From the IMG/VR virus record IMGVR_UViG_3300014137_000003: 64,000 nt of DNA, one strand, 5' to 3'. The position numbers and the translations under genes were made by a program. The stretch is from a virus. The notes under the pieces are model-generated. The model saw only the letters and a program-made list of their open reading frames with translations. It was not told where the DNA came from and searched no databases. Positions 4,735-60,458 of the stretch are shown here, piece by piece; the stretch's first letter is position 1; every line of letters starts with the position of its first letter.

Positions 4735-4878
4735 TTGGTTGAGCATATTGTTAAAATTGAGTGTCCAGATTGTGGTTATGTGAATCACTTAGGTCGTTAT
4801 GATGAAGAAGAATGCTTTAAGTGTGGTGCAGATTTGCACATAGCAGTTCAAGAAAGAACGAGAGGTAAAAAGGCTTGA
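4735..4878 (+). CDS. small zinc-ribbon protein (47 aa, below ORF-track cutoff)
   Basis: TTG 4735 to TGA 4876-4878 encodes ..ECPDCGYVNHLGRYDEEECFKCGADL..; two CxxC pairs; stop overlaps the ligase start. Confidence 0.35.
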   Translation: MVEHIVKIECPDCGYVNHLGRYDEEECFKCGADLHIAVQERTRGKKA

Positions 4879-6146
4879 GTACGGTAGTAGAAATTGGTGA
4901 ACTCTTACATAGCGTAGACGCCTATGGGGTATCCAGCTTACAAGAAGACCAAATCGAAAATCTTGAAAGATACATTCAAGAATGTAACGACGCAATGAAC
5001 AGCAATGACGAGCCTTTGGTAGAAGATGCAATCTATGATAAATTGGTAGAAGTTCTTACTAAGGTTCGCTCAGGTAGTCCTATTTTGCAGGAGTTGTGGT
5101 CTAAGGACTCCGAAGTTATTGGTTCTTTCAATGATTTGTTGGATAAGCACCCTATGGCGTCTATTCAGACAGTTAAGTCTTGGGAAGATGAAAACATTTC
5201 TAAATTCATCCAAAGAATGCCAGAAGTTTCATCTTATCTTGCAGCTTACAAGATTAATGGTCATGGTATTCGTATCGTTTATAAGAACGGGCAGATGGTA
5301 GAGGCTACAACTCGTGGTCGTTCTACTAATGGTCGTTCTATCCTAGAACACATGAAAATTCTTCTAGGTGAGTACAATGACTCCTTGGCTGATGAGGGCT
5401 TGGTAGAGGTTCGAGGTGAGTTGGCTCTACGTCTTGACCGTCTTGACGATGCTCGTGAATTCAATCCAACTCTTAAGTCGGCTTTCTCAGCGGTATCTTC
5501 TCTAATTAAGCCTAGTGCTACAGAGGAGGAAATTAAGTTACTTGATTTCCTAGCATATCGCATTTACATTGACGATTTTGAGTTCACCTCCCTCGAAGAA
5601 GTTTATACAACACTAGAGGGTTGGGGGTATAGCGTTCCTCAGTACATTTCTTTAGAGGATGTACCGAAAGATGAACTCTTCGAATCAATGCAGACAGTCG
5701 TATCAGACCTAGAAGAGAGTCTAGATGACTTCGGTTACTTCTGTGATGGGGTAGTTTTCGAGGCTAATGATAGTTTTGTTCGTGAAGACAACGAAGGTGA
5801 CGGAAAGTATCACGACTACAACCTAGCATTAAAAGTTAATTCTTGGTCACAGGATTTGTACACTGGGTATATTCAAGAGATTAAGTGGAAGCGTGGGAAG
5901 TCTAAACTTAGTCCAGTTGCAGTAGTTTCGGAATCTTTAGATAGCGATGAGGGTGTTTTAACAGTACAAGGTAATCGAGTTAAGAATGTACCTTTGTACA
6001 ATCCCAAAAACATTCTAGTCTTAAGTGCTTACTTGGGTTGTCCTATCAACTTTAAGTATGGGGGTGAAGCTGGGGTAGTTCCTTGTTTCCCAGATGGTCG
6101 CTTGTTATCAGAAGATTTTGTAGTTTATGATTTATTAGGAAAGTAG
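4875..6146 (+). CDS. NAD-dependent DNA ligase (LigA-type), N-terminal half: adenylation + OB domains only
   Basis: HPMASIQ, KINGHGIRIVYKNGQMVEATTRG (motif I, KxDG with D->N), VEVRGEL (III), CDGVVFEAN (IV), ALKVN (V), OB-like IQEIKWKRGKSKLSPVAVV; ends where the LigA Zn finger would begin. Confidence 0.75.
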   Translation: MSTVVEIGELLHSVDAYGVSSLQEDQIENLERYIQECNDAMNSNDEPLVEDAIYDKLVEVLTKVRSGSPILQELWSKDSEVIGSFNDLLDKHPMASIQTVKSWEDENISKFIQRMPEVSSYLAAYKINGHGIRIVYKNGQMVEATTRGRSTNGRSILEHMKILLGEYNDSLADEGLVEVRGELALRLDRLDDAREFNPTLKSAFSAVSSLIKPSATEEEIKLLDFLAYRIYIDDFEFTSLEEVYTTLEGWGYSVPQYISLEDVPKDELFESMQTVVSDLEESLDDFGYFCDGVVFEANDSFVREDNEGDGKYHDYNLALKVNSWSQDLYTGYIQEIKWKRGKSKLSPVAVVSESLDSDEGVLTVQGNRVKNVPLYNPKNILVLSAYLGCPINFKYGGEAGVVPCFPDGRLLSEDFVVYDLLGK

Positions 6147-6158
6147 GTAGAAGTTAAA

Positions 6159-6947
6159 ATGGTAAGTAAGAAAGAAAATCAAAATGCCCCTCAACAGTTG
6201 GGTGCACAGGTCATTAAGGTAGAGGTTTCTACTGTTGAACGACGTAAGGAGTTGTCTAAACCAACTAAAGATTTCTCGGTAAATGAGTTGGTTGTTTCCA
6301 ACCTTGTACGAGGTTTGGAGATGGCAATTGCTGAGAAAGATGCTGAGAAAGTTCTTGGGGATTCTTCTCTATTGGTTAAGTCTGAAGGAAAGACCTTGGT
6401 ATTCACTGCTGATATTATGTCGTTCCATGAAGATTTCATCGACTTGGGGTATGTTTCGATTGTAGGTGAGAAGGTAGGTTCTGTATTGACTCCTATTAAG
6501 GGTTCTATCTCAAATCTAGTTTCTGAGAAGTTTACTACGAAGTTGTCAGATATCAACTTCCAAGCTTTAAGTGGTAAACTTCTTCGTGGAACGACTCTTA
6601 TGTTTACTGCTAAGGTAGTAACGGAGTTGGGTATCGTTAACTTGGAAGACCTTACGGTTGAAGACTTTGGTTTCCGTTTGCTTAAAGAAGACCGTACAGT
6701 AGATACTCTTGCTATCTTCAATGACCTAGTTGACACTTACAACTATGAGTATTATGTAGTTGAGTCTGGTGTTCTAGTTAAGAACCAGTACAGGAATACT
6801 TCTTTGGATAGTTATTTTGAAGCTTTCAAAACCTCTGAAGACCAGAAACCTTTGGAGGAGGCTCTTAAGTACATCCTTGGCTCTTATGACGATAAGTACA
6901 AGAAATTGAAAGAAGTTCTTTGGGGTATCATCCGCCCCCAAGACTAA
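6159..6947 (+). CDS. hypothetical protein
   Basis: ORF track; no motif recognised. Confidence 0.55.
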   Translation: MVSKKENQNAPQQLGAQVIKVEVSTVERRKELSKPTKDFSVNELVVSNLVRGLEMAIAEKDAEKVLGDSSLLVKSEGKTLVFTADIMSFHEDFIDLGYVSIVGEKVGSVLTPIKGSISNLVSEKFTTKLSDINFQALSGKLLRGTTLMFTAKVVTELGIVNLEDLTVEDFGFRLLKEDRTVDTLAIFNDLVDTYNYEYYVVESGVLVKNQYRNTSLDSYFEAFKTSEDQKPLEEALKYILGSYDDKYKKLKEVLWGIIRPQD

Positions 6948-7030
6948 TATCACTTTTCGTAGTCTTATAAAATCTAGCAACCTTATCTTAGTGGATTTGG
7001 TTGTTTTCTATTTAGAAAGGTTTATTGATT

Positions 7031-8548
7031 ATGAGTGAAGAGTTAGTATTAGAAGAGGAAGTCCTAACAGATGAGGATTATAGCTCTGAAGAAGTTAGGG
7101 ATGAGGATTCTAGTTCTGAAGTAGATGGTAGAGACTTACTTAGGCAGGAAATGGAACAGGCTGTTAGTGGGAATACTGCTATTGGTGAGGAGTTTCAGGC
7201 TACATTTACAGAGGAAGAAAGGATTTCTTCTATCTTGAATTTGCGTTCTGACTCCTATACTTTGGAGTTGGGTAGGATAAATCTGTTGGAGTTGTCTCCT
7301 ACAGTTCCTTTGAAGGAGAGTCGTAAACAGACATATAAAGGTTTAACTCAGTCTGTTAGGGAGCTTGGTATTTTAACACCTATCCACGTAATGTACACAG
7401 AGGGGTATAAGCAATACCTTAAGGATGTTGAAGAAGGCTACGAAACGGAAGAGTGGTCTAAAGAAGAGTTTGGCGATAAGTATATCTTAATTGACGGTTT
7501 CCGTAGGGTATGGGCAGGTATTACTAATAAGATGCCTACTGCTCCAGCGGTAATTTGGGACTTCAAAGATATGGATTTAGCCATGGAGTTGCTAGTTCCT
7601 CTTAGTTTGTTGCTTAATCGAAGTCAGCATCGTGACTGGAAAGAAACTTGGGGCTTATATCAAATCTTAGAGACTACAGCTTTAATGACGCCAGCTACTT
7701 TAGAGTATTTACTTCAGCTCCAGCCAGGTGAGGCTATGAAGCTTAAGGACGTAATGCTCTGTGAGTATCCAGAAGTTATTGATGAGTTGTTATCTGAAGC
7801 AAAAACTTTGCAACAGTGTTATAACAACTTACAAAAACTCCGTAAAGAGGAAAACCAACTTGAAAGGGACGACCAACGAAGTTTGTCTGAAATCGAAGGT
7901 GCCGATGGGGTAGTCGGAGATATTACTGATGGTAATGGACAGTTATCTTATGATGAGGTTAAACAGCTCTTAGAGTTTGATGAATCTGACATTGAGAACT
8001 TATCAGATGAAGATTTCATCGACTTGGCAGGTGGAAAGAATGATGGGGTAGAGATTAACCGTAGAGCTGGAGAGGATATCCCAAGGGAACTTAAGCAAGC
8101 AGCTTTAGCACGGGATAACTATTCTTGTCAGATTAGTGGAACAGGTCTTAATAGTGGTCTTAAGATGACTATGGCTATGTCAGTTCTACAGGTTCACCAC
8201 ATTATTCCGTTGTATCTTGGGGGTAAGAATACCTTAGACAACTTGGTAACTGTTCGTATGGACTTGCATACGTGGATTCACGTTATTGAGCGTCTTGGTG
8301 GTAAGATTGGGATGTCTCCAGAAGAGTTTAAAGAACTTGAAGGCGTAGACAAGAGAGATTTGTTTGGTGCTTTGAAGTATGCGAAAGTTATTGTTGATGA
8401 GGCTAAACGTCAAGGTAAATCTACTACTGACAAGGCTTTGCAACAAGCGTCTTATGATGCAAGTCGTTTCAAAATGCCAGGAACAGACTTAAAAGAAAAC
8501 ATGGCATCTATACGAGACCATGAGGAGATGAAAGATGAAGTTTACTAA
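7031..8548 (+). CDS. ParB/Srx-like domain fused to an HNH endonuclease
   Basis: ILIDGFRRVWAG (ParB GxRR box); CQISG..VHHIIPLYLGGKNTLDNLVTV..H (HNH); acidic N-terminus; ATG 7031 (TTG 7025 alternative). Confidence 0.7.
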   Translation: MSEELVLEEEVLTDEDYSSEEVRDEDSSSEVDGRDLLRQEMEQAVSGNTAIGEEFQATFTEEERISSILNLRSDSYTLELGRINLLELSPTVPLKESRKQTYKGLTQSVRELGILTPIHVMYTEGYKQYLKDVEEGYETEEWSKEEFGDKYILIDGFRRVWAGITNKMPTAPAVIWDFKDMDLAMELLVPLSLLLNRSQHRDWKETWGLYQILETTALMTPATLEYLLQLQPGEAMKLKDVMLCEYPEVIDELLSEAKTLQQCYNNLQKLRKEENQLERDDQRSLSEIEGADGVVGDITDGNGQLSYDEVKQLLEFDESDIENLSDEDFIDLAGGKNDGVEINRRAGEDIPRELKQAALARDNYSCQISGTGLNSGLKMTMAMSVLQVHHIIPLYLGGKNTLDNLVTVRMDLHTWIHVIERLGGKIGMSPEEFKELEGVDKRDLFGALKYAKVIVDEAKRQGKSTTDKALQQASYDASRFKMPGTDLKENMASIRDHEEMKDEVY

Positions 8549-9536
8549 GTTATGTTGTATTACGGTCATAGGCATTAGTCTTCTTAGTGGGGGTAGTGCT
8601 TATGCCTATTCTGATATAGACGGAAAAATTACAAGTACTGATAATATTTCTTGGAATGAATTTGACCCTCTATCTTGGAACCAGTTTAATGCGGATGATA
8701 TGCCTGAGTCTTGGTTAGGTCATAAGATGCTAGATGGTTCCAGTGGGGTATCTTTCCCAGAGGGTGGCGATTTAATTTATGTCTACACCTTTTTAGCCAT
8801 TAAGACAGGTCACAAAATGGCAGGGTATATTCCCTCATTTGCTAATGCCGACTTAGAGAGGATGCATGCTTATGCTAATGGTTTACCTCACTTTGGTGCT
8901 GAGGGTATTTGGTCTAATGGATGGCATGCAGACCTTGAACCTAATGGTTCTCAAATTCAGAAGAATGCAACCCTTGATTCTGCTAGAAAAGAATTTAAGG
9001 ACGGGAAGTTGGTAGTTCTGCAAGTAAAGAACGACAACTTTACTGAAGAAACCCCTTACACTCACTTTATTGCTATTGACTCGGTAGAGAAAGACAACTC
9101 AGTTAAAATATTTGACAGCTATAAGCCAAGTGCAGTATTTACAGATGCCTATTCGCCTAGTGATGTAGTGGGTATGATTACCTTATCATCTGACAAGGCG
9201 AAATCAACAGAGTTACCAAAACTATGGGAGCGTAGGGGTTGGAAAGACGTTTACTCCAAAGACGGTGAAAGAGATAAGGAAACCTTAGGAGGTGGCGGAG
9301 GTAAGGCAGGAAAAGCCGACTCTACCTATGAAGAACCTAAAGATAAGAAAAAGGATAATCAATCATTAGGTAAGTATTCTCCTAAAGATGACGCCCCAGT
9401 CAAACTCGAAAGGGGTAACAAAGTTAAGAAGAAAGAAAGTAGGAAGCTAAGTGTTTGGAAAGTAGTAGCAGCGGTTGTAGGTTTAGCTATCCCTCTTGGA
9501 GGACTAGTATATTCATGGAAAAGAAAAAGAAACTAA
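8535..9536 (+). CDS. secreted, C-terminally anchored protein; paralog of the next gene lacking the nucleophile Cys
   Basis: Signal peptide MKFTKLCCITVIGISLLSGGSAYA; C-terminal TM + KRKRN; THFIAIDSV..KIFDS aligns with RHVFTIDYI..AMLDS of the next ORF. Confidence 0.45.
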   Translation: MKFTKLCCITVIGISLLSGGSAYAYSDIDGKITSTDNISWNEFDPLSWNQFNADDMPESWLGHKMLDGSSGVSFPEGGDLIYVYTFLAIKTGHKMAGYIPSFANADLERMHAYANGLPHFGAEGIWSNGWHADLEPNGSQIQKNATLDSARKEFKDGKLVVLQVKNDNFTEETPYTHFIAIDSVEKDNSVKIFDSYKPSAVFTDAYSPSDVVGMITLSSDKAKSTELPKLWERRGWKDVYSKDGERDKETLGGGGGKAGKADSTYEEPKDKKKDNQSLGKYSPKDDAPVKLERGNKVKKKESRKLSVWKVVAAVVGLAIPLGGLVYSWKRKRN

Positions 9537-10768
9537 AGTACCTAATTTCTCTAGGTATTCCCTGTTTAAGCCTACTTCAGAGTGTTACGGTTTTAGCCTA
9601 TAACCCAGACCCTCCAACAGCACCAGGTAGTTATAACATTGTCGACGTTGCTACTTGGGACCAGATGGGGTATAACGGTACTGTTCCACCATCTAAGACA
9701 AATATGGGTGGTTTCCATTGGTCTGAGGGTTGTATGACAATGTCTTATGCCACCTTTATGAGGAAGAGTGGTCAAAGGGATAAGAACTGGGGACCGAACG
9801 ATGCTTTCGACGAATTGAACAATTTAGGTGACTATGGTGGTGGTCAGTTCCCTATGGCTAGGTATAACCCAGGAGCCAAATGGGGTGATTGGACACTTGA
9901 AGGCTACGAAGAGGGTGGTCTTGATGGTATGACGAAGGCTTGGGAAGCTGGGTATGGTCTTGTTTGTATGGTAGCTATGGGTGGGGGTGGACGCCACGTA
10001 TTCACTATAGACTACATAGAGAACGGCAAGGTAGCTATGCTAGACTCAGGTCGTAGAGGGGTATTTATCGATGACCCAGGTGAGTGGGGTGCAGGTTCTA
10101 TCTTGGGGTATTACAAGTTAAAATCTCCCGATGGAACTAAAGGTAAAGACTTACCAAGATTGAATGAAGTTAGGGACGGTTCTAACTCTAAACCTACAAA
10201 GGGTGATAAGGATGGGGATGATAAAAAGGTATCATCTTCTGATGTGGGTGATGGTGGCTTAGTAGCTGAGGAAGACTTGGTTGGTATGATTAAGAGAAAT
10301 CATTACCTCTACGAGTATCAAATTCCAGTTGTTCTACCAGGTGAGGCAGTTCAAGGAGATAGTGCTTTATCTAAGGAACAAAATACTAATGCAGCTAGCA
10401 TTAAGGAAGATGTAGTAAATCAAAAGTTCAACCTTATCGACTTCATTAGAACTGTAATAGCCTTTATGGGTATCGCCATCTTCGTATTTGGTTTCGCATT
10501 GATTGTAGCTTACTTGTTTGATAAGAGTAATGTATACTTCGAGTTTAGTCTCATTAGTGCTTTAACCTTCGGAAGGTATGGAGTAAGTCACGATAAAGAC
10601 GTCACTCAAGCAGGAAAAACTAAACTATTGAAAACTGCAGGAATTATTAAGTTGTTTGTGTTTACTGAGATTATTGGTTGGTTGCTTGCTTCAGGTACTG
10701 TTTACAGCATTCTAGAGTTTATTTTCACTACTGTAAGTCGACTTGTTTCTGAGGGTACTTGGTGGTAA
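9515..10768 (+). CDS. secreted papain-like (peptidase C39-like) domain protein with C-terminal multi-pass membrane region
   Basis: Signal peptide after ATG 9515; SEGCMTMSYATF (Cys) and GGGRHVFTIDY (His); hydrophobic helices near the C-terminus. Confidence 0.4.
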   Translation: MEKKKKLKYLISLGIPCLSLLQSVTVLAYNPDPPTAPGSYNIVDVATWDQMGYNGTVPPSKTNMGGFHWSEGCMTMSYATFMRKSGQRDKNWGPNDAFDELNNLGDYGGGQFPMARYNPGAKWGDWTLEGYEEGGLDGMTKAWEAGYGLVCMVAMGGGGRHVFTIDYIENGKVAMLDSGRRGVFIDDPGEWGAGSILGYYKLKSPDGTKGKDLPRLNEVRDGSNSKPTKGDKDGDDKKVSSSDVGDGGLVAEEDLVGMIKRNHYLYEYQIPVVLPGEAVQGDSALSKEQNTNAASIKEDVVNQKFNLIDFIRTVIAFMGIAIFVFGFALIVAYLFDKSNVYFEFSLISALTFGRYGVSHDKDVTQAGKTKLLKTAGIIKLFVFTEIIGWLLASGTVYSILEFIFTTVSRLVSEGTWW

Positions 10769-10806
10769 AATAATTATATATAAATATTAGGTGGTTTAGA
10801 TTTATT

Positions 10807-11742
10807 ATGGTTTTAGTTAATGAATTGAAAAGCTCTGAGATAGGTGCTAGTTTAGACCCAAGGTTCTTTGAGGTTTTGCCAACTGTCTGTGAATCTTGTG
10901 GTTCTCCGTATAACTTGAACTTAGCTCTAACGGAGTTGAGTTGCATCAACCCCTCTTGTGGGGATAAAGTTGTTATGCGTATTCGCAAGATTTGTGAGGC
11001 TTATGGTATTAAGCACTTTGGAGAATCTTCTATCGAGAAGTGGGTAGAGGCTGAGGGTATTGTTAATCCTTTAAAGATTTTCGACGTTTATGAAGGAAAA
11101 CTCTTGGGAGGGTTGACAGACACTCTAAGTGATAAGATTGTACCTCAAATCTTAGCGTGTCGGTCTATGAAGTTGTGGGAGTTTGTTGCTAATGCTCAAC
11201 TTCCTTACATTCAATCTTCTGCAAAAACACTCCTCGAGGGGTACTCTTCTTTGGAAGACTTTTACTCCGATATGGAAGATGGTGGAGTTGAATTCATCCA
11301 AGGTAAGTTGGGTATTAAGGACTCTTACGATAACTTTGGTAATCCTATTGTTTCGGTACAGGCTATGAAGGTCTTTACTTCTTTAGAGGAATACAAAGAG
11401 GAGTTGCTAGAAGGTGCTGAGTATGTTACCTTTATCGAAGAAGGAAACCTACGAGAGTATTTGATTGTAGCTAGTGACGAGGTTGGAGGAGACTTCAAAA
11501 CAAAACGAGAGTTCTACAACTTCATCAAACAACGCTATAGTGGTCTAGTAGATTTCACTATTGGTAGTTCTGTAACGAAGAAAACCGACATTGTAGTGTG
11601 GAAAGGTTTCGATGACACTCCTGCTCGTTTAACTACAAAGGTTAAACGTGCTTATGAGTTAGACGCTCAAGGGGTAAAAATTCAAGGTTATACGGCTAAA
11701 GAGTTCATTGAGGCTTTTGACGAGGCTCTTGGTATTAAGTAG
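10807..11742 (+). CDS. NAD-dependent DNA ligase (LigA-type), C-terminal half: Zn finger + HhH + BRCT-like
   Basis: CESCGSPYNLNLALTELSCINPSCGDK (C4 finger), IKHFGESSIEKWV (HhH-like), ..SVTKKTDIVVWKG.. (BRCT-like); followed by a terminator. Confidence 0.65.
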   Translation: MVLVNELKSSEIGASLDPRFFEVLPTVCESCGSPYNLNLALTELSCINPSCGDKVVMRIRKICEAYGIKHFGESSIEKWVEAEGIVNPLKIFDVYEGKLLGGLTDTLSDKIVPQILACRSMKLWEFVANAQLPYIQSSAKTLLEGYSSLEDFYSDMEDGGVEFIQGKLGIKDSYDNFGNPIVSVQAMKVFTSLEEYKEELLEGAEYVTFIEEGNLREYLIVASDEVGGDFKTKREFYNFIKQRYSGLVDFTIGSSVTKKTDIVVWKGFDDTPARLTTKVKRAYELDAQGVKIQGYTAKEFIEAFDEALGIK

Positions 11743-11759
11743 TTTTATACTTGCTATAC

Positions 11760-11791
11760 AACTGGCGACAATTTAGGGTTGCCAGTTTTTT
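11760..11791 (+). terminator. rho-independent terminator
   Basis: AACTGGC/GCCAGTT stem then T run. Confidence 0.6.
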
Positions 11792-29569: not shown

Positions 29570-29588
29570 GGTAGAAGATGTTAGATTT
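29570..29588 (+). repeat. 19-nt direct repeat, right copy (includes the primase-core start codon)
   Basis: GGTAGAAGATGTTAGATTT, identical to 28440-28458. Confidence 0.8.
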
Positions 29589-30366
29589 GCAGGAGTTTGG
29601 GCTTTACGCTCAGGACTTTAAAAAGGTTTGGGGGTACTTCGAGACCTTAGATAGTGGTACCACTTACGAAGAGTTGTGTTCTCTAAGGTTGTATCAAGAC
29701 CCTAAAATGGTAGAAGTATTAAAGACAGTAGGGTTTATAAAGTTACCAGATACGGTAGATTTAGAGCCCTTGAAGGAATTACAGAGTTATTCGAATTTAG
29801 GGCTAGAAACCAAAACAGGCAGATGTTTGCTTGAAGGTAGGTTTGTTTTCCCAGTTAAGGATATGTTAGGTAATATCTTAGCTTTGATTGGTTGGTTTCC
29901 AGATGAAAAGAAATACATCACTACACCAAGTAAGTATTTCCACCGTTCGAGTTTATTCTTTGGGTTAGAGCAGTTATCTACTCACGGTAGGGAGAATATT
30001 GTATTCGTCTGCGAGGGAATCTTCGATGCCTTGTCTCTACGGTCTATGGGGTATCGAGCGTATGCCACTATGGGTGTTGAGTTATCTAGGCAGAAGAAGT
30101 TGATGTACTCCTTGCTCGGAGGTAGGGTAGTAGGGGTATCCGACCGAGATAGGGTCGGCAATTCTGTTAGGGATTATGATAGGTGGAGTTGTTGGAAGTA
30201 TCTAACTTGGGTTGGTGAGTTTGATATGTCTGAGGTAGATGAGGAAAACCTAAAAATCAAGGACATAGATGACTTAGTTAAGCTCTTTGACCCAGTAGCC
30301 TTGAAAGAAGTTATTGATGAAGAGTTAGCGACCAACCAAAATAAAATAGTTAAGTTAGAATTGTAG
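29578..30366 (+). CDS. DnaG-type primase catalytic core (RNA-polymerase + TOPRIM) without zinc finger
   Basis: RFVFPVKDMLGNILALIGW; VFVCEGIFDALSL (TOPRIM Glu); GVSDRDRVG (DxD). Confidence 0.65.
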   Translation: MLDLQEFGLYAQDFKKVWGYFETLDSGTTYEELCSLRLYQDPKMVEVLKTVGFIKLPDTVDLEPLKELQSYSNLGLETKTGRCLLEGRFVFPVKDMLGNILALIGWFPDEKKYITTPSKYFHRSSLFFGLEQLSTHGRENIVFVCEGIFDALSLRSMGYRAYATMGVELSRQKKLMYSLLGGRVVGVSDRDRVGNSVRDYDRWSCWKYLTWVGEFDMSEVDEENLKIKDIDDLVKLFDPVALKEVIDEELATNQNKIVKLEL

Positions 30367-35910: not shown

Positions 35911-36037
35911 TTATTGACAGTTAATTTTAGTATTAAATGCAATAGCTTAATTAGCTTTAATTTTTATAGGAATTCCTTAGATTTTTATCTAAGGTTTTAC
36001 TGGATTTATGGTACTTGGATCGTTGGTCTAGTACCTG
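35911..36037 (+). repeat. conserved intergenic element, copy B (upstream of gtfA)
   Basis: GTTAATTTTAGTA .. TTAGCT .. GATTTT .. hairpin GGTAC-TTGGATCGTTGGTCTA-GTACC with the identical 16-mer at 36012-36027. Confidence 0.55.
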
Positions 36038-36054
36038 TGCATAGGGGTGATTTA

Positions 36055-37554
36055 ATGGTAGTAGTAAATGTCAACCTTGGTATTGGGTATGCCTCAAGTG
36101 GGGTAGAGTACGCTCAAGCCTATCGTAGTAGGTTGTTAAAAAGTATGGGTAGAAAGCAAAAGAATGTTTTCTTAGATTTCATGCCCGATGATACGGTATA
36201 TGATATGGCTAGTAATTTGGGGATTCCGTCTGATTCGGTAGTATGGTTGTATGATTACTTTAGGGATTCCTTGGTTTCTAGCTCTGCTAAGAAATTGACA
36301 GACTTTGAAAAGGAGTGGGGTACTATTGATGAGTCTCGTTCTTCTGTATTCAGAAAGTATTTTGGAGATGAGAATGACTTTATCGTTGCTAATTTAAGTC
36401 GTTTTAACCCATCTTTTGTTACGTCTGTTGAGTATGTAAATGCTGGTTGTTTAGTCTTAAAAGAGTATTACTCTGAAAGCACTATTTATTGTAGGGAGCG
36501 TTTTACCCCTATTGATGGGGTAGCTACTCGGTATGTTAGGGAGTTCTATAATACAGATGGCACTCTTTACTTACAAGAGTTTATTGATGACACAAAAAAC
36601 TCAAGATTTCTCTATAAAGGAGAACTTTATCCAACAAAAGAAGCCTTATTTAAGTTAATGATGTCTAAAGTATTAACTAATAAGGATTTTGTACTACTTG
36701 ACCGTGCTAGTGGTACGGCTAAGGCTTTACTCTCTTTGAAGGATACTCTCAAATTTAAGTTGGGGGTAGTAGTTCATGCAGAGCATTTTGTTCCCGAAGG
36801 TACTAAGGATGGCAATATCCTATGGAACAACTTTTATGATTATGTTTTCCGTAATTCTGACAAGGTTAATGTCTTTATCTGTTCTACAGAGTTGCAGTCT
36901 GATATCTTGAAGAAGCAAATAAAACACTGCTATAATAAAGATATCGCAACTTATACTATTCCAGTGGGGTATCTTGAAGAGTTAAAAGGTAAAGATTTGG
37001 AAAGAGATTTAGCTAAGTTAGTCACTGTATCTCGTCTATCTAGTGAGAAGAACCTAGATATTCTTATTGAATCTCTTGCAACAGTAAAGGGTAAAGGTTA
37101 TGAATTTATTTTAGATATCTATGGTGAGGGTTCTGAGCGAATTAAGTTGGAGTCTCTAATTAAATCTAAAGGGTTAGAAGACTGTATCTTCTTAAAAGGT
37201 CACGTAGATGTATCAGATATCTATAAAGACTACTCATGTTATGTAAGTGCTTCTCAAGGGGAAGGTTTTGGTTTATCTTTAATGGAAGCAGTTGGCTCAG
37301 GTCTATTCCTAGTGGGGTATGATGTTAATTATGGAAACCCTACGTTCTGTAAGCAAAATGAGACAGGTTATCTAGTACCTTATGTAGAAGGTAAGCGAGA
37401 AGAAAATGTACTGTCACTTGCTGATGGTGTTGAGAAATATCTAGGCACTTATTTAACATTGCATAGGGGTAGTGTATATAACCTAGCTGAGGGGTATCTT
37501 AAAGATAAGGTAAAAGAATGTTGGAGGTCTTTGTTAAATGATAAGTCTATTTAG
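36055..37554 (+). CDS. gtfA: GtfA/TarM-family GT4 glycosyltransferase
   Basis: N-terminus VNVNLGIGYASSGVEYAQAYR matches the conserved start of GtfA-type enzymes; EGFGLSLMEAVGSGL GT4 region; ATG 36055 (ORF-track start 35914 lies in an intergenic element). Confidence 0.65.
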   Translation: MVVVNVNLGIGYASSGVEYAQAYRSRLLKSMGRKQKNVFLDFMPDDTVYDMASNLGIPSDSVVWLYDYFRDSLVSSSAKKLTDFEKEWGTIDESRSSVFRKYFGDENDFIVANLSRFNPSFVTSVEYVNAGCLVLKEYYSESTIYCRERFTPIDGVATRYVREFYNTDGTLYLQEFIDDTKNSRFLYKGELYPTKEALFKLMMSKVLTNKDFVLLDRASGTAKALLSLKDTLKFKLGVVVHAEHFVPEGTKDGNILWNNFYDYVFRNSDKVNVFICSTELQSDILKKQIKHCYNKDIATYTIPVGYLEELKGKDLERDLAKLVTVSRLSSEKNLDILIESLATVKGKGYEFILDIYGEGSERIKLESLIKSKGLEDCIFLKGHVDVSDIYKDYSCYVSASQGEGFGLSLMEAVGSGLFLVGYDVNYGNPTFCKQNETGYLVPYVEGKREENVLSLADGVEKYLGTYLTLHRGSVYNLAEGYLKDKVKECWRSLLNDKSI

Positions 37555-47641: not shown

Positions 47642-47713
47642 GCACCCTTGGTCTAATGGATATGACAGAGGACTTCTAATCCTTTAATACTGGTTCGATT
47701 CCAGTAGGGTGTA
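47642..47713 (+). tRNA. tRNA-Arg (anticodon TCT)
   Basis: Cloverleaf: GCACCCT/AGGGTGT acceptor, anticodon arm GAGGA-CTTCTAA-TCCTT, T arm ACTGG-TTCGATT-CCAGT. Confidence 0.85.
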
Positions 47714-49519: not shown

Positions 49520-49815
49520 TGGCTAAATATACGAAATATGACGGAACTCCTATTGAGGTAGATGCTCAGACCGAGTTGGTATATACTCGTTGGATTTCTC
49601 TTATCGGTGAGTTTGCTCGTTTTAGGAATTCAGGTAGGTTTCCTTTTTGGTCTGATGGGGTATATCTTCGCAAGAGCGATTTTCCTAGCTCTAATGCAGG
49701 GTTTAAACGTTTCTTGAAGTACACAATGCCACGCCATTATGATATTTACTGTACTGAGAAGTATAAAGTTACACCTATGAGTCAGCTTATTGCTGAGGTT
49801 TGTAGGAACGCTTAG
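49519..49815 (+). CDS. hypothetical protein
   Basis: ORF track. Confidence 0.5.
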   Translation: MAKYTKYDGTPIEVDAQTELVYTRWISLIGEFARFRNSGRFPFWSDGVYLRKSDFPSSNAGFKRFLKYTMPRHYDIYCTEKYKVTPMSQLIAEVCRNA

Positions 49816-49825
49816 GGGGTATAAG

Positions 49826-50296
49826 ATGTCAGAAAAGTTTGTAAAGGGTGAAGAATTGGTTCACCCAGAACGTTATACAAAGAACAAGATTGAATCTTGG
49901 GACTTCACTCTGCAGTCTCTATTCCCTCATACTATTGCAACGGTAGTTGAGTATGTAATTCGCTATAAACATAAGGGTGGGTTACAGGACTTAGAGAAGG
50001 CAATTAACTGGACAAAGAAGGCTAGTCAGTCTTATCAGTATATTAGGTTATGTAGACCTAGGGAGCTTACTAGGATTGAATACTTTAAGAGTGTACCTTT
50101 TGTAGATGAAACTAACTTCCCAGACCTCTCATGGGAACAGCTTTTGATTCTACAGCACGCTCAAATGTTAACATTCTACTTAGATAACGAAGAGAAGTTT
50201 AACAGTTATATTGCTAAAATCTTAGAATCACTTGAGAAGCTTGTGGAAATGGAAAAAGAGAAAGAAGGTAGTGGTAATGATTTCAATGAAAAGTAA
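49826..50296 (+). CDS. DUF3310-like protein, paralog of 55466-55894
   Basis: VHPERY..IESWDF....VIRYKHKGGLQDLEKAINW pattern; ATG 49826. Confidence 0.5.
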   Translation: MSEKFVKGEELVHPERYTKNKIESWDFTLQSLFPHTIATVVEYVIRYKHKGGLQDLEKAINWTKKASQSYQYIRLCRPRELTRIEYFKSVPFVDETNFPDLSWEQLLILQHAQMLTFYLDNEEKFNSYIAKILESLEKLVEMEKEKEGSGNDFNEK

Positions 50297-53684: not shown

Positions 53685-53778
53685 ATTAGTATAGTAGCTT
53701 AGGCTACTAGGGTAGGATGCATTTAATACGTGTAAGAGTCATGGTGGAAGTGTCTAAAGCGTCCTACCTTTTCTATTT

Positions 53779-53852
53779 GTACCTTTAGCTTAGTTGGTTA
53801 AAGCCCTCGGCTCATAACCGAGTCACCGTAGGTTCGAGTCCTGCAAGGTACA
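53779..53852 (+). tRNA. tRNA with CAT anticodon (Met, or Ile if lysidine-modified)
   Basis: GTACCTT/AAGGTAC acceptor, CTCGG-CTCATAA-CCGAG, GTAGG-TTCGAGT-CCTGC; no initiator hallmarks. Confidence 0.85.
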
Positions 53853-53878
53853 TAATTTTAAGAAATGAGGTATTCTAG

Positions 53879-55172: not shown

Positions 55173-55430
55173 ATGAAAGACAAAGACAATTATAAGTCAA
55201 CAATGTGCGTCAAGCTGAATCACCCAGAAGCTTCAACGGTATTTAATGTTATCTGTACTAAGGAGCAAGAAAACTTTCTAAAGTTCTTAGCAAGTATTTC
55301 TACTAATGTTTCTATGAATAGGTATGAACCTACAATGAGTGTGGCTGAGGGGGTAGGGAACTGCGAAAGTGATACTTTAAACGGTACTAAGAAGGCTTTT
55401 ATCTTCGATGCAACAATGTTGGAGGAGTGA
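55173..55430 (+). CDS. hypothetical protein
   Basis: ATG 55173; ORF-track 55140 alternative. Confidence 0.45.
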   Translation: MKDKDNYKSTMCVKLNHPEASTVFNVICTKEQENFLKFLASISTNVSMNRYEPTMSVAEGVGNCESDTLNGTKKAFIFDATMLEE

Positions 55431-55465
55431 GAAGTATCTTGCTTACTAACGAAGTGGAGGTAATC

Positions 55466-55894
55466 ATGAAAGAAAAATTCGTAAAAGACGAAGAACTAGT
55501 AAATCCAGAACGGTATATGCAAAATAAGATTGAAGCTTGGGATTTTGCCATTCAAAGTCTCTTTCCTTACCCTCTAGGGGTAGTTTCTAAGTATGTAATT
55601 CGTCATAGACATAAGGGTGGTAAACAAGACTTAGAAAAGGCTCTTATTTGGGCTAAGAAAGCTAAGGAATCTTATAAGTATATTTCTTTGAGTTGTCCTA
55701 GTGGTATTATTTACTTTGAAGAGGTACCTAAGGCAAGTGTAGAGAACTTTCCAGACCTTGGTGACGAGGAGATTTTAATATTAAAACTTTTACAAGAGGT
55801 TACTTCTCGTCTAAGGGAGGAGGAGATGTTCGAAGGAGTAATGTCTCACATTATTAAAATATTAGAGGGAATGATAGAAAACTTCCCTAGTTAG
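55466..55894 (+). CDS. DUF3310-like protein, paralog of 49826-50296
   Basis: MKEKFVKDEELVNPERYMQNKIEAWDF.. closely parallels MSEKFVKGEELVHPERYTKNKIESWDF.. Confidence 0.5.
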   Translation: MKEKFVKDEELVNPERYMQNKIEAWDFAIQSLFPYPLGVVSKYVIRHRHKGGKQDLEKALIWAKKAKESYKYISLSCPSGIIYFEEVPKASVENFPDLGDEEILILKLLQEVTSRLREEEMFEGVMSHIIKILEGMIENFPS

Positions 55895-56448: not shown

Positions 56449-56830
56449 GGGGTCGTCTTGGATTCGACAGGCGACTGAGATTAAGAACTTCACTCCGAGT
56501 GGTGACGTAATCACCAAACTTAAATATAACTGCAAACACAGTTCAACCTGTTGAGATGGCAGCCTAACAAGTCTCCCTCGACTTGTATGTCTGTCTAATC
56601 AACACAAGTAAATTACCGATTAAGGTGAGCGACTATCTGTAAGTAACGGTGCAGTGGTAGCTATAAACCACGTTACTCGCTAGAAGGGGTATCTCAGCCC
56701 TCTAGTTAAATACGAGATATAGCTTTAGGGTTTGTGCATTTACCTAAGGTCGAATGTTTAAATGTAGCAGAGTGCTATAGAGTTTTTAGTTGAGGTTGTT
56801 TGGACGTGGGTTCGAAACCCACCGGCTCCA
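56449..56830 (+). ncRNA. ssrA: tmRNA (SsrA-like)
   Basis: 5' GGGGTCGTCTTGGATTCGACAGG; 3' GGACGTGGGTTCGAAACCCACCGGCTCCA; acceptor GGGGTCG/CGGCTCC with G3:U70; tag ORF 56532-56567 GCA AAC ACA GTT CAA CCT GTT GAG ATG GCA GCC TAA = ANTVQPVEMAA. Confidence 0.85.
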
Positions 56831-56833
56831 TTA

Positions 56834-56906
56834 GGCTTGATAGCTCAATTGGTAGAGCAGTGGACTCTTAATCCACGGGTTGTAGGTTCGAGCCCTACTC
56901 AGGTCA
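56834..56906 (+). tRNA. tRNA-Lys (anticodon CTT)
   Basis: Starts 3 nt after the tmRNA; GTGGA-CTCTTAA-TCCAC, GTAGG-TTCGAGC-CCTAC. Confidence 0.8.
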
Positions 56907-57335: not shown

Positions 57336-57408
57336 TCCACCATAGCTCAGTTGGTAGAGCACCTGACTGTTAATCAGGTTGTCACAGGTTCGAGACCTGT
57401 TGGTGGAG
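57336..57408 (+). tRNA. tRNA-Asn (anticodon GTT)
   Basis: TCCACCA/TGGTGGA acceptor, CCTGA-CTGTTAA-TCAGG, ACAGG-TTCGAGA-CCTGT. Confidence 0.85.
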
Positions 57409-58751: not shown

Positions 58752-58823
58752 GCACTGTTGGTCAAGTGGTTAAGACACTGCCTTTTCACGGCAGTAACAG
58801 GAGTTCGATTCTCCTACAGTGTA
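58752..58823 (+). tRNA. tRNA-Glu (anticodon TTC)
   Basis: GCACTGT/ACAGTGT acceptor, CTGCC-TTTTCAC-GGCAG, AGGAG-TTCGATT-CTCCT. Confidence 0.85.
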
Positions 58824-58919: not shown

Positions 58920-58929
58920 ATTTAAATAT

Positions 58930-59003
58930 CGGGAAGTAGCTCAGCTTGGTAGAGCACTTGCTTTGGGAGTAAGGGGTCGCAGGTTCGAATCCTGTCTTCC
59001 CGA
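58930..59003 (+). tRNA. tRNA-Pro (anticodon TGG)
   Basis: CGGGAAG/CTTCCCG acceptor, CTTGC-TTTGGGA-GTAAG, GCAGG-TTCGAAT-CCTGT. Confidence 0.85.
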
Positions 59004-59426
59004 TGGCAAAAGATTGTATTTGAAGTAATTCATTGCATTTCGGCTTAATAGCTTGGGTAAGGTTGTTAAGTCATTAGGTGCAAGCATAATGTGCAACCGT
59101 TATGTGAGTGCTTTAGTTCCTTAATTACAAGGACGCCTAAGTGAAGGGTTAATATTCACTAACGCTCCTCAGCGATACGAGGTGACGACAACGGTTCGAT
59201 TAATAGCTAAATTTAGTCAGATAAGGTTGTTGAGATTTAATGCATTGTGTAGATGTTATCCCCTTTTAGTATAATTTAGATTCGTACCTTTCTTTCTATA
59301 GGTAACTCTCTACAAACGGTTTAGGGTAAGTAAAAAGCCGTTCATTAAATCAATATAAAACCCAGTTGCAAAAACGATATTGACATCTCCTTAATGTCTT
59401 AAATTACTTACTTTTTATCGTTTTTA

Positions 59427-59961: not shown

Positions 59962-60045
59962 GCACCCATGGCGGAACAGGCAGACGCTCAGGACTTAAAA
60001 TCCTGTGTCCAGAGGGACGTCCGAGTTCGAGTCTCGGTGGGTGTA
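59962..60045 (+). tRNA. tRNA-Leu (anticodon TAA), class II
   Basis: GCACCCA/TGGGTGT acceptor, CAGGA-CTTAAAA-TCCTG, 15-nt variable arm, CCGAG-TTCGAGT-CTCGG. Confidence 0.85.
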
Positions 60046-60353: not shown

Positions 60354-60458
60354 ACTTGGGTAGTGATGAGGTGCAATTCCTTATCATGAATCGGAAAGCG
60401 TGACAGCGTACCTATCTTTAAGGGGTAGGTGATGAGGGTTCGAGCCCCTCTCCAAGTA
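60354..60458 (+). ncRNA. aberrant tRNA-like RNA: canonical anticodon (TAA), T and acceptor arms, D region replaced by a long hairpin
   Basis: ACTTGGG/TCCAAGT acceptor; CTATC-TTTAAGG-GGTAG; GAGGG-TTCGAGC-CCCTC; 8-9-bp hairpin 60363-60387 plus ~23 nt where the D arm should be. Confidence 0.35.

Follow-up and report, generated by a model that had tools for sequence, protein, structure and literature searches.

The 64,000-nt stretch of viral DNA from IMG/VR virus record IMGVR_UViG_3300014137_000003 (the window) carries the modules of a LigA-type DNA ligase on two open reading frames (ORFs) and not on one polypeptide. The first of these, termed here the N-half, contains domain Ia, the nucleotidyltransferase (NTase) domain and the oligonucleotide/oligosaccharide-binding (OB) domain. 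The second, the C-half, contains the zinc finger, helix-hairpin-helix (HhH) repeats and a BRCT-like domain. The two are separated by 4660 nt (~4.7 kb), which hold four genes (Table 1); the positions of both ORFs and the four genes between them are as given in the original prediction, which had been made from the sequence with no database searches. The reading favoured here, with a probability of about 0.75, is that a single functional LigA-type DNA ligase is formed from the products of the two ORFs, each of them supplying one subunit.

In single-chain LigA, the zinc finger bridges the OB domain to the HhH domain, and the clamp closes through contact between the NTase and HhH domains (PMC10504179). 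In the proposed two-subunit enzyme, Lys126 of the large subunit (Ia-NTase-OB) would accept adenosine monophosphate (AMP), and this subunit would catalyse the sealing of nicks. The small subunit (Zn-HhH-BRCT) would provide the DNA-binding half of the clamp, a part that the single-chain enzyme carries in covalent linkage behind its OB domain. By analogy with the heterodimeric ligase of phage PR1, the subunits would associate non-covalently, on or off DNA.

Table 1. Features of the ligase block in the window
Feature	Position	Strand	Description
Zinc-ribbon-like CxxC...CxxC ORF	4735-4878	+	47 aa, TTG start; stop overlaps N-half start by 4 nt
Putative ligase large subunit (N-half)	4875-6146	+	423 aa, TTG start; Ia + NTase + OB; ends in OB-to-Zn linker
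Motif I, K126-I-N-G	5250-5261	+	K126 is the predicted AMP-accepting Lys (E. coli K115); N128 replaces D117
Intervening gene 1, hypothetical	6159-6947	+	262 aa; fast-evolving
Intervening gene 2, ParB_N + HNH nuclease-like	7025-8548	+	507 aa
Intervening gene 3	8535-9536	+	333 aa; signal peptide, C-terminal membrane anchor
Intervening gene 4	9515-10768	+	~417 aa from ATG 9515 (alternative TTG 9455); signal peptide, C-terminal transmembrane segments
Putative ligase small subunit (C-half)	10807-11742	+	311 aa; N-terminal extension, C4 zinc finger, HhH repeats, BRCT-like domain
Intrinsic terminator-like hairpin	11760-11787	+	10-bp stem, T run; directly 3′ of C-half gene

LigA modules on two genes

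The N-half matches Pfam DNA_ligase_aden (PF01653) above the cut-off (E 1.9e-16), positions 4-354 of 656 of the full-length phage LigA family phrog_3869 (E 7.6e-36), and the adenylation-domain structures of LigA in the PDB (E 1e-11). It is aligned by phmmer to residues 10-365 of E. coli LigA, and a MAFFT alignment to the same enzyme runs on after the NTase domain through the OB fold, the part predicted as a β-strand-rich region at 316-404 in a model of the two halves joined together. These matches bear out the assignment of the ORF to the adenylation and OB domains of LigA, with an end before the zinc finger.

The C-half, for which no Pfam match was obtained, matches positions 391-651 of phrog_3869 (E 2.6e-16) and also phrog_3498, a family of ligase B subunits from T5-like phages (E 2.2e-9). 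A profile built from its relatives retrieves from the PDB the chain 9hu3_B, 'DNA ligase subunit B' (2.3e-5), followed by 8ak4 (3e-4) and 2owo (0.016), and matches full-length LigAs at residues 403-547. The AlphaFold model of the C-half has a mean predicted local distance difference test score (pLDDT) of 86.9, and its best Foldseek matches are 9hu3_B (1.4e-8 over 283 columns) and 2owo_A (7.6e-6), with E. coli 5tt5, Deinococcus 8ak4 and Thermus 1v9p/1dgs among the further best structural matches of this predicted fold. The cysteines of the C4 finger (C28, C31, C46 and C51) are invariant in the relatives. A 23-residue N-terminal extension that precedes the finger is also conserved, and M1, V4, L7, F20 and P25 are, like the zinc cysteines, (near-)invariant in relatives down to 42% identity. 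At the other end of the protein, the BRCT-like segment SVTKKTD aligns weakly to the BRCT domain of LigA. The description of this ORF as C4 finger, HhH and BRCT-like regions thus agrees with both its family and its structural matches.

Profile and structure searches therefore assign both ORFs to the same family, of which they cover successive parts (4-354 and 391-651 of phrog_3869), as expected if together they make up a complete LigA. When the halves are joined head to tail, the resulting model (pLDDT 84) can be aligned along its whole length with full-length LigA structures, over 650-750 columns (E 1e-27 to 4e-33). A search of the six reading frames of the window found no other LigA-like ORF, and none of its other ORFs of 150 aa or more was identified as a ligase.

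In what follows, residue numbers are those of E. coli LigA unless stated otherwise, and the clade of N-half relatives was compared by alignment. The two predicted motif changes, KING for KxDG in motif I (Y-K126-I-N-G in the window protein) and TRGRS for TRGDG, were both confirmed in this way. Nearly all active-looking members of the clade keep K115, G118, R136, E173, D285, G286 and K314, and D32, Y35 and D36 of domain Ia are conserved over the clade. The nucleotidyltransferase core is accordingly present in the N-half of the window (K126, the motif I glycine, and the equivalents of E173, D285/G286 and K314), with D117 to N and K290 to E as non-canonical positions.

Residues outside this core are more variable. 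D117 is replaced by N in most members of the clade and retained in several, and this alternation suggests that N is tolerated at the third position of motif I. D138 is always R (hence TRGR), K290 is E, Q, S or A, and E113 is S or A (A in the window protein). R208 and R277 are lost, and in place of R200 the derived part of the clade has F or L. In domain Ia, Y22 and H23 are replaced by varying residues, while D32, Y35 and D36 are kept; these five are presumably the residues that bind nicotinamide mononucleotide (NMN) and give specificity for nicotinamide adenine dinucleotide (NAD+) in E. coli LigA, as mutational work on that enzyme indicates. It has been reported that NAD+ specificity is conferred by domain Ia, that adenine and NAD+ are contacted by the Lys of motif IV (K290) and by an acidic residue of motif I (E113), and that the motif I Asp is a member of the metal-binding set (PMC7470946, PMC10504179). 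A fixed catalytic core with a relaxed periphery of cofactor contacts fits a working nucleotidyltransferase with a non-textbook nucleotide pocket, although NAD+ use is not thereby proven. The A subunit of the T5-like ligase likewise lacks E113, R208 and R277, and has K290R. Losses of this kind are therefore not at odds with a ligase of which crystals on nicked DNA have been obtained.

Remote, half-length proteins resembling the N-half (360-460 aa) that lack the motif I Lys, and often other catalytic residues, also occur in metagenomes (P0332, P0340, P0342, P0345, P0346, P0357, P0358, P0372, P0390, P0393, P0398, P0410 and P0417). Judging by their sequences, these are probably catalytically dead derivatives of a split ligase subunit.

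Conservation and gene order of the halves

Relatives of the N-half were sought exhaustively among 1.84 billion cluster representatives (50%-identity clusters). Both halves occur in hundreds of metagenomic clusters, always as separate proteins and on phage contigs of 175-200 kb, and many N-half and C-half clusters agree in the size of their longest contig. Sizes in the relatives are narrow, 423-425 aa for the N-half and 309-316 aa for the C-half. The nearest ~100 N-half cluster representatives, down to ~26% identity, are all half-length (390-500 aa), and none of them is an intact ligase allele. Full-length LigAs (630-690 aa) first appear in this search at E ~1e-19 and weaker.

The halves also diverge in step. 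Their identities to the window proteins (N-half/C-half) are 85/86, 80/80, 72/68 and about 47/42% across relatives. In comparison with relative L008, the ratio of nonsynonymous to synonymous substitution rates (dN/dS) is 0.085 for the N-half and 0.044 for the C-half, values that are rough since dS is saturated, and the proportion of nonsynonymous differences (pN) lies far below that of synonymous ones (pS).

Gene order was compared in related loci. The six-gene order, with all four intervening genes, is the same in L008 (85% identity) and L004 (72%). In L009, in which the C-half is 42% identical, the C-half gene instead lies 7.6 kb upstream of the N-half, with ~15 genes between. In L014, in which the N-half is 36% identical, a ParB_N+HNH gene comes immediately after the N-half, and no C-half is present within 10 kb downstream. 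The split thus goes back a long way and has been stably kept in a large lineage of uncultivated ~175-200-kb phages, and the halves are two independent, stably maintained genes.

Conservation, selection and synteny taken together rule out both pseudogene decay and a recent mobile insertion. The substitutions in the active site, and the fact that most of the genome lies outside the window, might suggest that the halves are decaying fragments of a dispensable or replaced ligase. This is highly improbable and effectively refuted by conservation and dN/dS, since both genes are full length and free of frameshifts in hundreds of contigs with pN far below pS, the catalytic Lys is conserved along with motifs III-V and the four Cys, and plausible ribosome-binding sites stand ahead of both genes.

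Homing genes of the HNH type do interrupt genes in phages. An HNH-domain gene lies between the halves, in keeping with the second proposal, fission by insertion of an HNH-associated cassette. In the form considered here, a mobile cassette would have entered a formerly intact ligase gene, and the present arrangement would be its scar. An ancestral order of N-half, HNH gene and C-half is conceivable, given that the ParB_N+HNH gene directly follows the N-half in the 36%-identical relative. Like phage genes split by homing endonuclease genes or introns, the ligase is a replication gene in two pieces with an HNH gene between them. It differs from them in that the insert consists of conserved core genes, there are no nearby intact alleles, the order of the halves varies (it is reversed in L009), and no intron was found. 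Far from being sporadic, the insert recurs with its four genes in relatives that are 72-85% identical, and no intact allele occurs among the nearest ~100 clusters. The ParB-HNH protein has two domains and 507 aa and is under the strongest constraint of the block (dN/dS 0.027), unlike a selfish homing gene, and an Rfam scan of the block revealed no intron or ribozyme. Fission by such a cassette is therefore quite unlikely. In its recent or mobile form it is not supported by these data, while an ancient origin of this kind is possible; an insertion, if it caused the split, is ancient and compatible with a functional heterodimer today.

Splicing at the RNA or protein level could in principle restore a single product. 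However, the N-half closes with a normal stop codon and the C-half opens with a normal start codon, four conserved genes further on, and no Rfam intron or ribozyme lies in the block; intein motifs were not specifically searched.

The third proposal, that the halves are neofunctionalised fragments, would make the N-half a nucleotidyltransferase or minimal ligase acting alone, perhaps with another donor or substrate, and the C-half a free DNA-binding/BRCT adaptor, for example for the ParB-HNH protein. The remodelled pocket (E113, K290, R200 and Y22/H23 lost; KxNG) accords with it, as does the view that NTase+OB is the minimal catalytic unit (PMC10504179). The two genes are unlinked in some relatives, the ParB-HNH gene neighbours one ligase half or the other in every related locus seen, and the remote proteins without K115 imply that the fold can be re-used. 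However, the N- and C-halves co-occur and diverge at equal rates, and the C-half retains the exact Zn-HhH-BRCT set of LigA together with its invariant N-terminal extension. Moreover, the solved PR1 enzyme shows the same split working as a heterodimer, and no second ligase that would create redundancy was seen in the window. Independent functions for the halves are thus rather unlikely, with nothing specifically in their favour.

Among the three readings originally offered, the two-subunit ligase is accordingly preferred: the halves occur together, are conserved and evolve under purifying selection, the catalytic Lys is kept, as are the core motifs, and there is a solved precedent. Both ORFs belong to one family, neither shows pseudogene decay, and there is no additional intact ligase in the loci examined. 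Several points nevertheless weigh against the two-subunit ligase. The N-half carries D117N, E113A and K290E and has lost R200, R208, R277 and Y22/H23, so that its activity or cofactor could differ from those of LigA. The AlphaFold2 model of the concatenated halves has a predicted template modelling score (pTM) of 0.45 and a low-confidence junction, and it is therefore not informative on the subunit interface. The dN/dS values are rough, as noted above. The window comprises 64 kb of a ~180-kb genome, leaving room for another ligase outside it. Finally, association of the subunits, ligase activity and NAD+ as the cofactor are all inferred.

Genes between and around the halves

The four genes between the halves had been described as a hypothetical gene, a ParB-HNH nuclease gene and two genes for secreted papain-like proteins. 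Gene 1 has no Pfam or PHROG match, and its counterpart in L004 is 41% identical and in the same position. Gene 2 has weak Pfam matches in the window (ParB_N, E 6e-5; HNH, E 7e-5) and matches HNH and ParB PHROGs, and both domains are clearly supported in its L014 relative. No gene of the block is better conserved (dN/dS 0.027), and its identities are 91% in L008, 79-82% in L004 and 45% in L005. This gene has one of the ligase halves within a few kb in L008 and in four more distant loci, even where the halves are rearranged (L004 12151-13716; L005 1829-3172; L009 5149-6498; L014 4770-6332). A functional link between the ParB-HNH protein and the ligase, by nicking and sealing, is conceivable from this neighbourhood.

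Genes 3 and 4 are paralogous (hhalign probability 92%, E 6e-7). Both were correctly predicted to be secreted, while the papain-like label is unconfirmed: neither has a Pfam, PHROG or PDB match, and no protease family was found for gene 4. Gene 4 has an invariant Cys73/His161/Asp177, of which the Cys is missing in gene 3. Its C-terminal membrane part resembles the C-terminus of a Phage_lysozyme2 protein encoded a few kb upstream in relatives (L004 4458-5009).

The 47-aa ORF ahead of the N-half overlaps it as predicted and appears, from the arrangement of the two frames, to be translationally coupled to it. Its identity as a zinc ribbon is weaker (E 0.002-0.03, below Pfam cut-offs). A counterpart in L008 has 44 aa and 61% identity (dN/dS 0.13), and there is none in L004, so that the ORF is no fixed part of the ligase system and probably does not belong to the ligase. 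It was considered as a displaced zinc finger of the ligase and rejected on account of its different Cys spacing and its absence from L004.

The window appears to be a segment of a large-phage genome, with a guanine-plus-cytosine (GC) content of ~37% and all long ORFs on the + strand. Among ORFs of at least 150 aa there is one exception to this strand bias, a 181-aa ORF at 6191-6736 that is nested in intervening gene 1 and is probably spurious. GC skew is positive (0.12-0.27) in each 2-kb window over the 64 kb, and the uniform strand and skew together point to one very long co-directional replication/transcription arm. The ligase genes lie in a replication module: the window also encodes a DnaG zinc ribbon, PolA and SbcCD-like proteins, and relatives have GyrA/ParC-like and DnaB genes upstream.

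The block from 4735 to 11742 is tightly packed, with successive spacings of -4, 12, 77, -14, -22 and 38 nt and no convincing terminator within it. The hairpin that follows the C-half gene, with the ~270-nt gap after it, is probably the end of the transcription unit. Given this spacing and the position of the terminator, the ligase halves appear to open and close the series of long cistrons in one operon, and we infer from the sequence that both are co-transcribed within a single replication-module operon.

Similarity to deposited phages is low. A near-identity DNA search with the block gave no match among them, nor did tblastn searches with the C-half and the ParB-HNH protein, and PolA is at most 28% identical to deposited-phage proteins.

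A DnaG-type primase in the window is seemingly split too, into ORFs at 1517-2038 and 29578-30366 that are 27.5 kb apart. In the first (173 aa), the CHC2 zinc ribbon is the sole domain (Pfam Zn_ribbon_DnaG, E 5e-12), and the second (262 aa) contains the Toprim core (Toprim_2, E 1.7e-5); the pair aligns to consecutive stretches of the same primase PHROGs (phrog_47 37-108 and 172-288). Fission of replication enzymes may therefore be a habit of this phage group.

Other features of the window include a phage transfer-messenger RNA (tmRNA) at 56449-56833 (Rfam 103.9 bits) with the tag peptide ANTVQPVEMAA, directly upstream of a transfer RNA (tRNA) gene for Lys. There are eight tRNA genes (47642-47713, 53778-53853, 56834-56906, 57336-57408, 58752-58823, 58929-59004, 59962-60045 and 60389-60458), and paralogous ORFs resembling small P-loop nucleotide kinases flank the tRNA/tmRNA region (49790-50296 and 55427-55894; phrog_236 and phrog_5839). 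A GtfA-like glycosyltransferase is encoded at 35914-37554 (Glycos_transf_1 + GtfA_EBD). The distant relative L009 encodes a sortase and a giant surface protein of the TED/SpaA type (L009 1-1430 and 13574-14632), and these genes, with the GtfA-like gene, hint at a Gram-positive host.

Relation to known ligases

Compared to canonical LigA (E. coli, 2owo/5tt5; phages of phrog_3869), the window pair has the same six modules in the same order, and has in common with it the adenylylation Lys, the motif III Glu, the motif IV Asp, the motif V Lys, D32/Y35/D36 and the four Cys. It differs in being two polypeptides, in substitutions at E113, D117, K290, R200, R208, R277, Y22 and H23, in inserts in the OB fold, and in the extra N-terminal element before the zinc finger. 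Deposited phages with weak matches to the N-half (Clostridium phage c-st, Erwinia phage Y3 and cyanophage MaMV-DH01) have intact ligases of ~650 aa.

Two-subunit LigA is an established kind of enzyme that has been structurally solved in T5-like phages (Demerecviridae). Phage T5 has ligase genes annotated as ligA and ligB (PMC3632103), and PDB entries 9hu3 and 9i5i are titled 'PR1 phage heterodimeric DNA ligase in complex with 21-mer nicked DNA'. The T5-like families are PHROG 3359 (A) and 3498 (B), represented by gp116/gp117 of Providencia phage PR1, and a similar B subunit is found in 911 deposited phage records. An alignment of A+B from phages PR1, SuperGirl and Morian places the break at the same point as in the window, after the OB domain and just before the C4 zinc finger. 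As in the window, A is Ia-NTase-OB, B is Zn-HhH-BRCT, and both are encoded in the replication module; PR1 subunit B (9hu3_B) is the best structural match of the C-half. This precedent lowers the novelty of the window ligase: no new class of system is opened, and the principle is already known and solved.

There are also differences. The T5-like subunits are smaller (~330 and ~250 aa compared to 423 and 311 aa in the window), and their genes are ~190 bp apart, compared to 4.7 kb in the window and a variable order in its relatives. The T5-like A subunit keeps KxDG, R200 and the Ia Tyr-Tyr and has K290R, whereas the window clade has KxNG, TRGR, R200F/L and a variable position 290. In the T5-like Vibrio phage Morian, three small genes lie between A and B, which are likewise non-adjacent. 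Its A gene (locus L003, PQ768829.1; gp55, 1646-2614) was deposited as a 'hypothetical protein' and is ligase A by its match to phrog_3359 (E 3.4e-140); the annotated B is gp51.

Whether the two splits have one origin can be approached through the relative similarity of the halves. The N-half scores 44 bits against T5-like A compared to 71-88 bits against full-length LigAs, and its E-value is 8.9e-16 for the T5-like A family (phrog_3359) compared to 7.6e-36 for the full-length family. T5-like A itself scores 115 bits against full-length LigAs, and a rough neighbour-joining tree and a BLAST matrix place it with them and the window clade apart. This grouping suggests a separate fission and makes descent of the window pair from the T5-like A and B families doubtful. 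The C-half gives a mixed picture: its scores against phrog_3869 and phrog_3498 are 60 and 38 bits for the window and 52 and 56 bits for L009, and the C-half clade profile ranks T5-like B above full-length LigAs. On balance, these sequence comparisons make it somewhat likely that fission in the window clade was independent of that in T5-like phages, and cleavage of LigA between OB domain and zinc finger has probably occurred more than once in phage evolution.

A more far-reaching interpretation would combine an independent split with a re-engineered pocket (E113, K290, Y22/H23 and R200 lost; KxNG), perhaps for another nucleotidyl donor or for tuning of subunit dosage, and would see in the ParB-HNH neighbourhood a possible module for making and sealing nicks. 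T5-like genomes carry site-specific nicks, which offers an analogy for such a module. Taken as a whole, this interpretation of the sequence is unlikely.

What the window pair illustrates is that LigA can be severed at the linker between OB domain and zinc finger and yet be long maintained, and that the two genes need not adjoin. This has practical value for annotation, since half-ligases are easily overlooked or mistaken for truncated genes, as in the window lineage and in Morian gp55. The clade also forms a natural set of active-site variants (KxNG, no K290 or E113) with which to ask which contacts of LigA are required. Compared to the T5-like enzymes, what is specific to the window is a separate lineage, probably split independently, with non-adjacent ligase genes and a derived nucleotide pocket.

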